From: Escherichia coli O127:H6 str. E2348/69
Lineage (GTDB): Bacteria > Pseudomonadota > Gammaproteobacteria > Enterobacterales > Enterobacteriaceae
Assembly (NCBI RefSeq): GCF_000026545.1
Contig: NC_011601.1
Length of the DNA: 64,000 bases
Strand: one strand, 5' to 3'
Numbering within the stretch: the stretch's first letter is position 1; each line of letters starts with the position of its first letter. Made by a program: the position numbers and the translations under genes. The notes beneath the pieces were generated by a model, which saw only the letters and a program-made list of their open reading frames with translations, was not told where the DNA came from and did no database searches. Shown here piece by piece: positions 28,826 to 29,422 of this stretch.

Positions 28826-29422
28826 ATGAAAAGTATTTATGACATAAGACGCAAAAACCTTAACGAAATCATTCGCCGGGATTTCGATGACACCCAGTTA
28901 CGCTTTGCAGAACGGGTGAAGCGTTCGCAGAACCTGGTCAACAGGTGGTGTACTGGTATCAAAAATATCGGACCTAATGCCGCGCGTATCATCGAAGAAG
29001 CAGCCCGCAAAGAAAAGTTCTGGCTTGATGTCGATCACGAACTGGACGCAGTACAGGATGATATCTTTATTCCGGCCACTGAAGATGGAGAATGGACTGT
29101 AGAGAAGCAGGCCGCCGCCACGCTCAATGCCTGGATGAGAAAGAACAGTGAAATGACATCCGAAAAGAAAGTTGCTGTTGCAGCTGGCATTGGACCTGCC
29201 ACCGTTAACCGCATCATGAAAGCGGAAGTCAGCACAACCATCGGCGTTCTTTCCTCCCTGGCGCGCGCGTTCGGGCATGAAGCATACGAGATGATTATTC
29301 CCGTCGGCTCACCTGGTGTTATCGACTATGACCACCGGATGTATGCAGCCCTGCCACAGGAAGAGAAAAACAAGATCACCTCATTCATCAACTTCGTGTT
29401 TGAGCAGAACAAAAGCAAGTAA
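28826..29422 (+). CDS. Prophage repressor (CI-like) with two HTH domains, no LexA-type peptidase domain
   Basis: Two XRE-type HTH-like segments (LRFAERVKRSQNLVNRWCTG and KKVAVAAGIGPATVNRIMKAEV); flanked on both sides by operator triplets; near-leaderless start. Confidence 0.55.
   Translation: MKSIYDIRRKNLNEIIRRDFDDTQLRFAERVKRSQNLVNRWCTGIKNIGPNAARIIEEAARKEKFWLDVDHELDAVQDDIFIPATEDGEWTVEKQAAATLNAWMRKNSEMTSEKKVAVAAGIGPATVNRIMKAEVSTTIGVLSSLARAFGHEAYEMIIPVGSPGVIDYDHRMYAALPQEEKNKITSFINFVFEQNKSK

Follow-up and report, generated by a model that had tools for sequence, protein, structure and literature searches.

The window analysed here, a 64-kb stretch of DNA from the EPEC strain Escherichia coli E2348/69, carries a prophage that is integrated beside guaA (int, 35086..36339; guaA, 36532..38109) and runs past the left window edge, through holin, endolysin and Rz-like genes, up to yfgI. 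The whole genome of the Salmonella phage SPC32H is colinear with window 2761..36546, with 85-98% DNA identity in blocks, and the immunity region shares 94-96.5% DNA identity with those of VB_ST_E15, SPN1S, SPC32H/N, PAT1 and epsilon15 (genus Uetakevirus). From the integrase to the lysis genes the prophage looks complete, the only signs of decay being three partial (pseudogene) hypothetical CDSs that RefSeq places on the minus strand at 24479..25964, between the replication and terminase genes. RefSeq also annotates a pseudogenic tRNA-Gly on the plus strand at 21057..21169, at the place that corresponds to a tRNA-Arg in SPC32H; ARAGORN detected no tRNA in the whole 64-kb window.

The plus-strand ORF of 198 aa that the first-pass annotation had read as the gene of a CI-like repressor is real, RefSeq having a CDS at identical coordinates (Table 1). 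The product, here termed Rep, is WP_000836620.1 in RefSeq and is labelled there as a 'helix-turn-helix domain-containing protein'. Divergent from rep lies a Cro-like gene, with which the rightward early (replication) operon begins and whose product is 100% identical to SPC32H_042 (77/77). The closest structural counterpart of Rep is PDB 5D50_A, with 97% identity end to end (aa 1-198 on 2-199, E 4.6e-127); this chain, entitled 'Repressor', is part of a crystal structure in which Rep and Ant of a Salmonella temperate phage form a complex, while residues 92-198 of Rep are the counterpart of a second PDB entry, 5D4Z. SPC32H Rep and E2348/69 Rep agree in 192 of 198 residues, the six substitutions being R17L, D78A, N107D, S108T, S162A and V165I. 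The last two of these lie inside the Ant-binding tail and are conservative, and they were counted against a transfer of the mechanism from one protein to the other. Judged by this similarity, Rep is the orthologue of SPC32H Rep and of epsilon15 gp38, and rep is identified as the master repressor gene of an epsilon15/SPC32H-like prophage in E. coli E2348/69. In total, 44 relatives of Rep were collected from six enterobacterial genera (Salmonella, E. coli, Klebsiella, Raoultella, Enterobacter and Cronobacter), and one architecture is common to all those of nearly full length (~165-225 aa).

Table 1. Coordinates of the rep gene and its product's domains, of the dyad operators, and of ant and its LexA-type box in the window
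Feature	Position	Strand	Remarks
rep, predicted prophage master repressor	28826..29422	+	198 aa, ATG start; in the ORF list and as RefSeq CDS at identical coordinates
Rep N-terminal HTH, predicted DNA-binding domain, aa 1-62	28826..29011	+	helices 4-19, 24-30, 35-43, 50-59 (model)
Rep flexible linker, aa 63-91	29012..29098	+	pLDDT <50 for residues 63-87
Rep second HTH_3-like module, aa 92-160	29099..29305	+	Pfam HTH_3 at aa 104-150
Rep C-terminal tail, aa 161-198	29306..29419	+	helices 170-175, 178-196; covered by 5D4Z
Cro-like gene, 77 aa	28437..28670	-	phrog_35 'transcriptional repressor', E 2.1e-10; divergent from rep
OR-like cluster between cro-like gene and rep	28710..28771		dyads 28740-28754 and 28757-28771 exact; 28710-28724 with one mismatch
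OL-like cluster downstream of rep	29481..29633		dyads 29481-29495, 29543-29557, 29619-29633
Nuclease promoter-operator module	26371..26447		dyads 26371-26385, 26433-26447; upstream of the minus-strand PDDEXK nuclease gene
Operator dyad upstream of the terminase small-subunit gene (terS)	23943..23957		equivalent epsilon15 site 12..27
Operator dyad upstream of the portal/structural operon	20595..20609		equivalent epsilon15 site 2931..2947
Operator dyad in the ant/tailspike intergenic region	3349..3363		92 bp upstream of the ant ATG; annotated 'repressor' in epsilon15
ant, predicted antirepressor, 86 aa	3441..3701	+	tblastn with SPC32H Ant (AGR48758.1), 3441..3698, stop at 3701
LexA-type box upstream of ant, CTGTATGTTTTATACAG	3403..3419		CTGT-N9-ACAG, extra T at 3410

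Rep is composed of three parts, an N-terminal HTH, an HTH-like middle module and a C-terminal tail. Pfam HTH_3 (PF01381) matches the whole protein with 36.3 bits and the isolated C-terminal half (match 104-150) with 26.4 bits, against a gathering cut-off of 23. Residues ~19-61 stay below threshold (HTH_3, E 0.12, 12.8 bits alone; YdaS, E 0.019), and strong matches to PHROG regulator families (phrog_5736, E 1.6e-9) were obtained for the N-terminal stretch; PF15943 is precomputed at the N-terminus of many Rep homologues. Comparison of the family profiles of both modules with the PDB returned solely HTH proteins, namely the XRE-type HTHs of Stl/Orf20, MBF1, HigA, PezA and CI for the N-terminal domain, and NHTF, LacI HTH, HigA, HipB and Cro for the middle module. 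Similarity between the two modules is weak, as BLASTP of the N-terminal against the C-terminal half of Rep gave no match and a profile-profile alignment brought the two helix-turn-helices into register with a probability of 48% (E 2e-4).

The single-sequence AlphaFold model of Rep (pLDDT 37.6) was discarded, and the model used was built from a 28-sequence family alignment (mean pLDDT 74.7). It is all-helical, with a four-helix N-terminal domain (4-59), a disordered stretch (63-87), a five-helix module (92-156) and a C-terminal extension. Foldseek ranked 5D50 and 5D4Z first for this model, the C-terminal half superposing on 5D4Z with a TM of 0.81, and the next matches were the XRE-type HTH regulators NHTF, ClgR, C.AhdI, the DdrO N-terminal domain and lambda repressor. 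The linker is the most variable and most gapped stretch of the family alignment, and the tail contains a conserved I-x-YD...LPQEEKNKITSFI block. Two HTH modules had been claimed for the protein, and both were recovered here, the middle one by an HTH_3 match above the cut-off and the N-terminal one by PHROG and PDB profile matches; the statement that Rep consists of these two modules, however, overlooked a third element at residues ~161-198.

The first-pass annotation had further stated that an S24/LexA-like C-terminal domain is lacking, which holds throughout the family. The S24 peptidase profile (PF00717) gave no match in Rep even at E<=10, none of the 44 relatives carries the domain, and the domain annotation revealed no cryptic peptidase domain beside the two HTH-type modules. 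By inspection, the linker at residues 63-91 (EKFWLDVDHELDAVQDDIFIPATEDGEWT) contains neither an Ala-Gly nor a Cys-Gly dipeptide, and the sole AG in Rep, residues 120-121, is located in the turn of the second HTH. Hence neither of the two features expected of a LexA/CI-type repressor, the S24 Ser-Lys domain and the AG/CG linker site, was found in Rep. It is extremely improbable that activated RecA cleaves or directly inactivates Rep despite the lack of a recognisable S24 domain. The absence of a Pfam match is in itself no proof, and nothing else was found that speaks for a RecA-dependent inactivation, whereas the search at E<=10, the linker without AG or CG and the all-helical fold, identical in the model to that of 5D4Z/5D50, are all against it, as is a review according to which repressors of the Rep type are inactivated by Ant and not cleaved (passage in PMC7380047).

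The operators of Rep are recognised as dyads with the sequence TTACC-N5-GGTAA, of which the 64-kb window contains 10 exact matches, all within the prophage, against 0.02 expected; in 100 shuffles, none yielded more than one match. The extended consensus is a 17-bp dyad, ATTACC-N5-GGTAAT, whose flanks are unconserved. Dyads are abundant in the 155-bp intergenic region between rep and the Cro-like gene and in the 220 bp downstream of rep, where they make up the OR-like and OL-like clusters. A promoter-like TTGATT-16-AATAAT on the minus strand (28733..28706) overlaps the OR dyads, and a promoter-like TTGACA-17-GATTAT on the plus strand (29515..29543), bracketed by the OL dyads and overlapping with them, reads into the recombination/early-left operon. 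The dyad pair upstream of the nuclease gene is spaced by 62 bp, as in the OL pair, and this module, read on the minus strand, aligns with the OL module so that both dyads and the TTGAxA -35-like hexamer between them are in register. The two modules look like a repeated promoter-operator unit, which a tetramer with two DNA-binding faces could bracket.

The distribution of operators over the prophage is not new, because the GenBank record of epsilon15, whose immunity region is 94.7% identical, already annotates equivalent 'repressor' binding sites, which coincide with dyads of the window. The record marks such sites at OL (three), terS, the portal operon, ant/tailspike and downstream of the replication genes, but no OR dyads, whereas the window has two exact dyads and a near-exact one there. 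Of 80 related viral contigs, 64 have an exact copy of the ant/tailspike dyad, placed 90-95 bp upstream of ant, and this conservation suggests that Rep also acts in that intergenic region.

How the three parts of such a repressor cooperate is known from SPC32H. Passages of PMC9986798, citing Kim 2016, describe SPC32H Rep as an N-terminal DNA-binding domain (DBD), a middle dimerisation domain (MDD) and a C-terminal CAD or 'TetDloop', the latter tetramerising Rep and binding the antirepressor Ant. DNA is bound by the Rep tetramer, with paired DNA-binding domains drawn from different dimers (PMC9638917, in part), and Ant traps Rep in a non-binding conformation, as stated in a part of the preprint bioRxiv 10.1101/2025.11.27.690993.

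These accounts bear on the earlier suggestion that the dyad operators fit dimeric or tandem HTH recognition. The dyads themselves proved real, but the repressor is described to work as a tetramer and not as a simple dimer (passage in PMC9638917). The tandem part is not supported, with DNA binding assigned in the literature to the N-terminal domain only and no second motif found. That both HTH modules of each protomer contact DNA, at two sites or along an extended operator, is very unlikely, even though the HTH_3 match of the middle module is genuine and exceeds that of the N-terminal one, and even though T126 and R129 in the middle module's 'ATVNRI' motif, at positions typical of HTH recognition helices, do not vary in the Rep family. 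Against this reading, the passages of PMC9986798 assign the middle module to dimerisation and those of PMC9638917 let the tetramer use pairs of N-terminal domains, and the operators are simple 17-bp dyads, in the flanks of which no second conserved motif was found. A role of the second HTH as a second DNA reader was thus rejected on the literature and on the lack of another motif beside the dyads. Since the literature assigns the middle domain to dimerisation, the second HTH-like module of Rep is a protein-protein interaction domain.

An antirepressor gene was located in the same prophage, 25 kb from rep. Its 86-aa product matches SPC32H Ant in 85 of 86 residues (tblastn), has no significant Pfam family and is labelled hypothetical protein in RefSeq (WP_001189556.1). 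As in SPC32H, ant has the structural operon on one side and the divergent tailspike gene on the other; a terminator-like hairpin (3713-3730) follows at its 3' side and a LexA-type box precedes it. The expectation that induction proceeds via an antirepressor rather than by self-cleavage thus finds its candidate in the prophage, and it agrees with what experiments have established for the 97%-identical SPC32H Rep (5D50; passages in PMC7380047, PMC9638917 and PMC9986798).

The rep gene very probably belongs to the characterised Rep-Ant lysis-lysogeny switch of a Uetakevirus (epsilon15/SPN1S/SPC32H-like) prophage. By analogy with what is known of the 97%-identical protein, a Rep tetramer would contact DNA with paired N-terminal domains, dimerisation would be the task of the middle HTH-like module, and the C-terminal domain would tetramerise and serve as the docking site of Ant. 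Because Rep operators sit at every major transcription unit of the prophage, Rep would be predicted to silence each of them directly. As reported for SPC32H, the ant gene would normally be under LexA repression, so that Ant is made after DNA damage; Rep itself would stay uncleaved in the SOS response, and Ant would bind the C-terminal domains of two Rep dimers, by which the DNA-binding tetramer would be broken and the operators released. We infer the identical chain of events for the E2348/69 prophage. In line with such a scheme, LexA self-cleavage leads in several Salmonella prophages, including this type, to production of an antirepressor that inhibits the repressor, which is itself not cleaved (passage in PMC7380047, citing Kim and Ryu 2013), and a DNA-damaging microcin induces E. 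coli Uetakevirus prophages, according to a portion of bioRxiv 10.64898/2026.05.26.727859. The literature search found no relevant induction data on the E2348/69 prophage.

A strict search for the canonical LexA box, CTGT-N8-ACAG, returned no site in the 64-kb window, and this empty result led to the variant with a 9-nt spacer upstream of ant. The spacer is N8 in all six related phages and all three other E. coli prophages that were aligned, as well as in the newer E2348/69 assembly NZ_CP059840.2. Among 80 IMG/VR contigs with genes for relatives of Ant, an N8 box precedes the ATG by 36-41 bp in 76, and no such box is present in three; the single contig with N9, 40 kb in length, is identical to the window in Ant and its upstream sequence, and is presumably of the same strain. 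Two RefSeq assemblies of E2348/69 that were checked at the site have the insertion, as does this one IMG/VR contig. The insertion is probably a true and derived change.

Over its first 40 kb, the window does not differ from the E2348/69 'variety 2' assembly NZ_LT827011.1 (from position 2775214), and comparison with NZ_CP059840.2 revealed just three differences over 39 kb (1828, 3410 and 27679). The first is a G/A SNP in the tailspike CDS (555..3242, minus strand), the RefSeq accessions of the two tailspikes being different, and the second is the extra T in the LexA box of ant. At the third, the window has one 24-bp repeat unit fewer in a CDS on the minus strand (27267..28073). This CDS is a DnaT-like replication gene with tandem 24-bp repeats, which give the protein repeats PKNGNVTKIGSI / PKNGKLND, so that two assemblies of one strain differ in the copy number of the unit.

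In 2013, Kim and Ryu reportedly described SPC32N as a sibling of SPC32H that is constitutively lytic and has a point mutation in the ant LexA box, and reportedly presented Ant as a distinct class. Alignment of SPC32N with SPC32H showed a C->A change in the ACAG half-site of this box, matching the mutation in that account. Because the box in the window has a 9-nt spacer, LexA-mediated SOS coupling may be weakened or lost in this E2348/69 lineage; alternatively, the insertion may do little, or it may silence ant. A consensus scan found no plus-strand promoter upstream of ant, and no convincing -35/-10 pair was found among 59 distinct upstream sequences, in which the conserved blocks GGTAATTTGCA and GTGCTGGATAG were seen.

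A rewired switch is possible but doubtful, one in which the insertion abolishes LexA binding and the Rep operator 92 bp upstream alone holds lysogeny, or in which silencing of ant locks the prophage in. The spacer difference that speaks for it is one of only three in 39 kb relative to NZ_CP059840.2, and the N8 form prevails in 76 of 80 viral contigs, the lone N9 contig being identical in Ant and upstream sequence; besides, 64 of the 80 retain the Rep dyad upstream of ant, and apart from the box the prophage gives a complete impression between its integrase and lysis genes. On the other side, no convincing -35/-10 of ant was found, and the insertion could still be a homopolymer error, though two RefSeq assemblies and one IMG/VR contig carry it. 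Should LexA binding indeed be abolished, lysogeny might, as a tentative reading, be kept solely by Rep repressing ant, in a double-negative Rep/Ant loop, and the conserved Rep dyad upstream of ant could be the reason why damage to the LexA box is tolerated in a lysogen. With regard to rep itself, the SPC32H-type Rep-Ant switch is retained as the reading of the locus.

The likeness to SPC32H (PDB 5D50, 5D4Z) covers Rep (192/198), Ant (85/86) and the Cro-like protein (77/77), as well as the gene order, the operator dyad, the location of ant, with structural genes on one side and the tailspike gene on the other, and the LexA box upstream of ant. Full-length similarity, the three-part architecture, a cognate ant and dyads at both OR and OL place the locus in the SPC32H type, from which it departs in the canonical CTGT-N8-ACAG, the box being present with a 1-bp insertion (spacer of 9 nt against 8 nt in SPC32H). 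The two differ further in the host, Salmonella for SPC32H and E. coli (EPEC E2348/69) here, in the six substitutions of Rep, and in a ~1-kb ORF (29793..30752) of the window's early-left operon, which SPC32H lacks. This plus-strand ORF, the second gene after the OL-like promoter, encodes a hypothetical protein of 319 aa that is very rich in Glu, Ala, Lys and Arg and is probably a coiled coil; the whole stretch has no counterpart in SPC32H.

A non-cleavable repressor together with a small, LexA-repressed antirepressor made in the SOS response is also described for Gifsy-1/-3, Fels-2 and coliphage 186 (Tum) in passages of PMC7380047; different from the antirepressors of these phages, Ant of the window has no significant Pfam family. 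With lambda CI, P22 C2 and LexA, the locus has in common the divergent cro-like gene, a three-site OR and a three-site OL, and an N-terminal HTH of the Cro/C1 type, whereas the S24 domain and AG site of those proteins are absent from Rep. In place of the C-terminal part of the CI family, Rep has an HTH-like dimerisation module and a tail for tetramerisation and Ant binding. The Rco/Rap system of the Bacillus plasmid pLS20 is described as resembling Rep-Ant in an N-terminal DBD, a C-terminal p53-like tetramerisation domain and inactivation by a partner protein, and SPC32H Rep is explicitly grouped with these TetDloop repressors (passages in PMC9986798); Rep differs by its additional middle dimerisation domain, and Ant is unrelated to Rap.

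As the SPC32H orthologue is known in structural and mechanistic detail, the novelty of the locus is low: the family of Rep, its structure, its operators and antirepressor-based induction are already known from the 97%-identical protein. The practical value lies in a better annotation of the EPEC prophage, for which the RefSeq labels are still 'HTH domain-containing protein' in the case of Rep and 'hypothetical' in that of Ant. The extra base pair of the ant LexA box in one E2348/69 lineage, which we had not met before, is a modest, testable side lead. For users of E2348/69 it may be relevant that two stocks of the strain have different SOS operators at a prophage antirepressor gene, as the difference could change spontaneous phage release and lysis. 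If the insertion abolishes LexA binding, the two laboratory lineages would form a ready-made isogenic pair for comparing LexA and Rep as the lock on ant.

A further observation concerns the early-left operon under the predicted control of Rep, which in this EPEC prophage contains a gene for a PerC-family transcriptional regulator (33163..33462, plus strand). PerC-type regulators act on the LEE virulence island.
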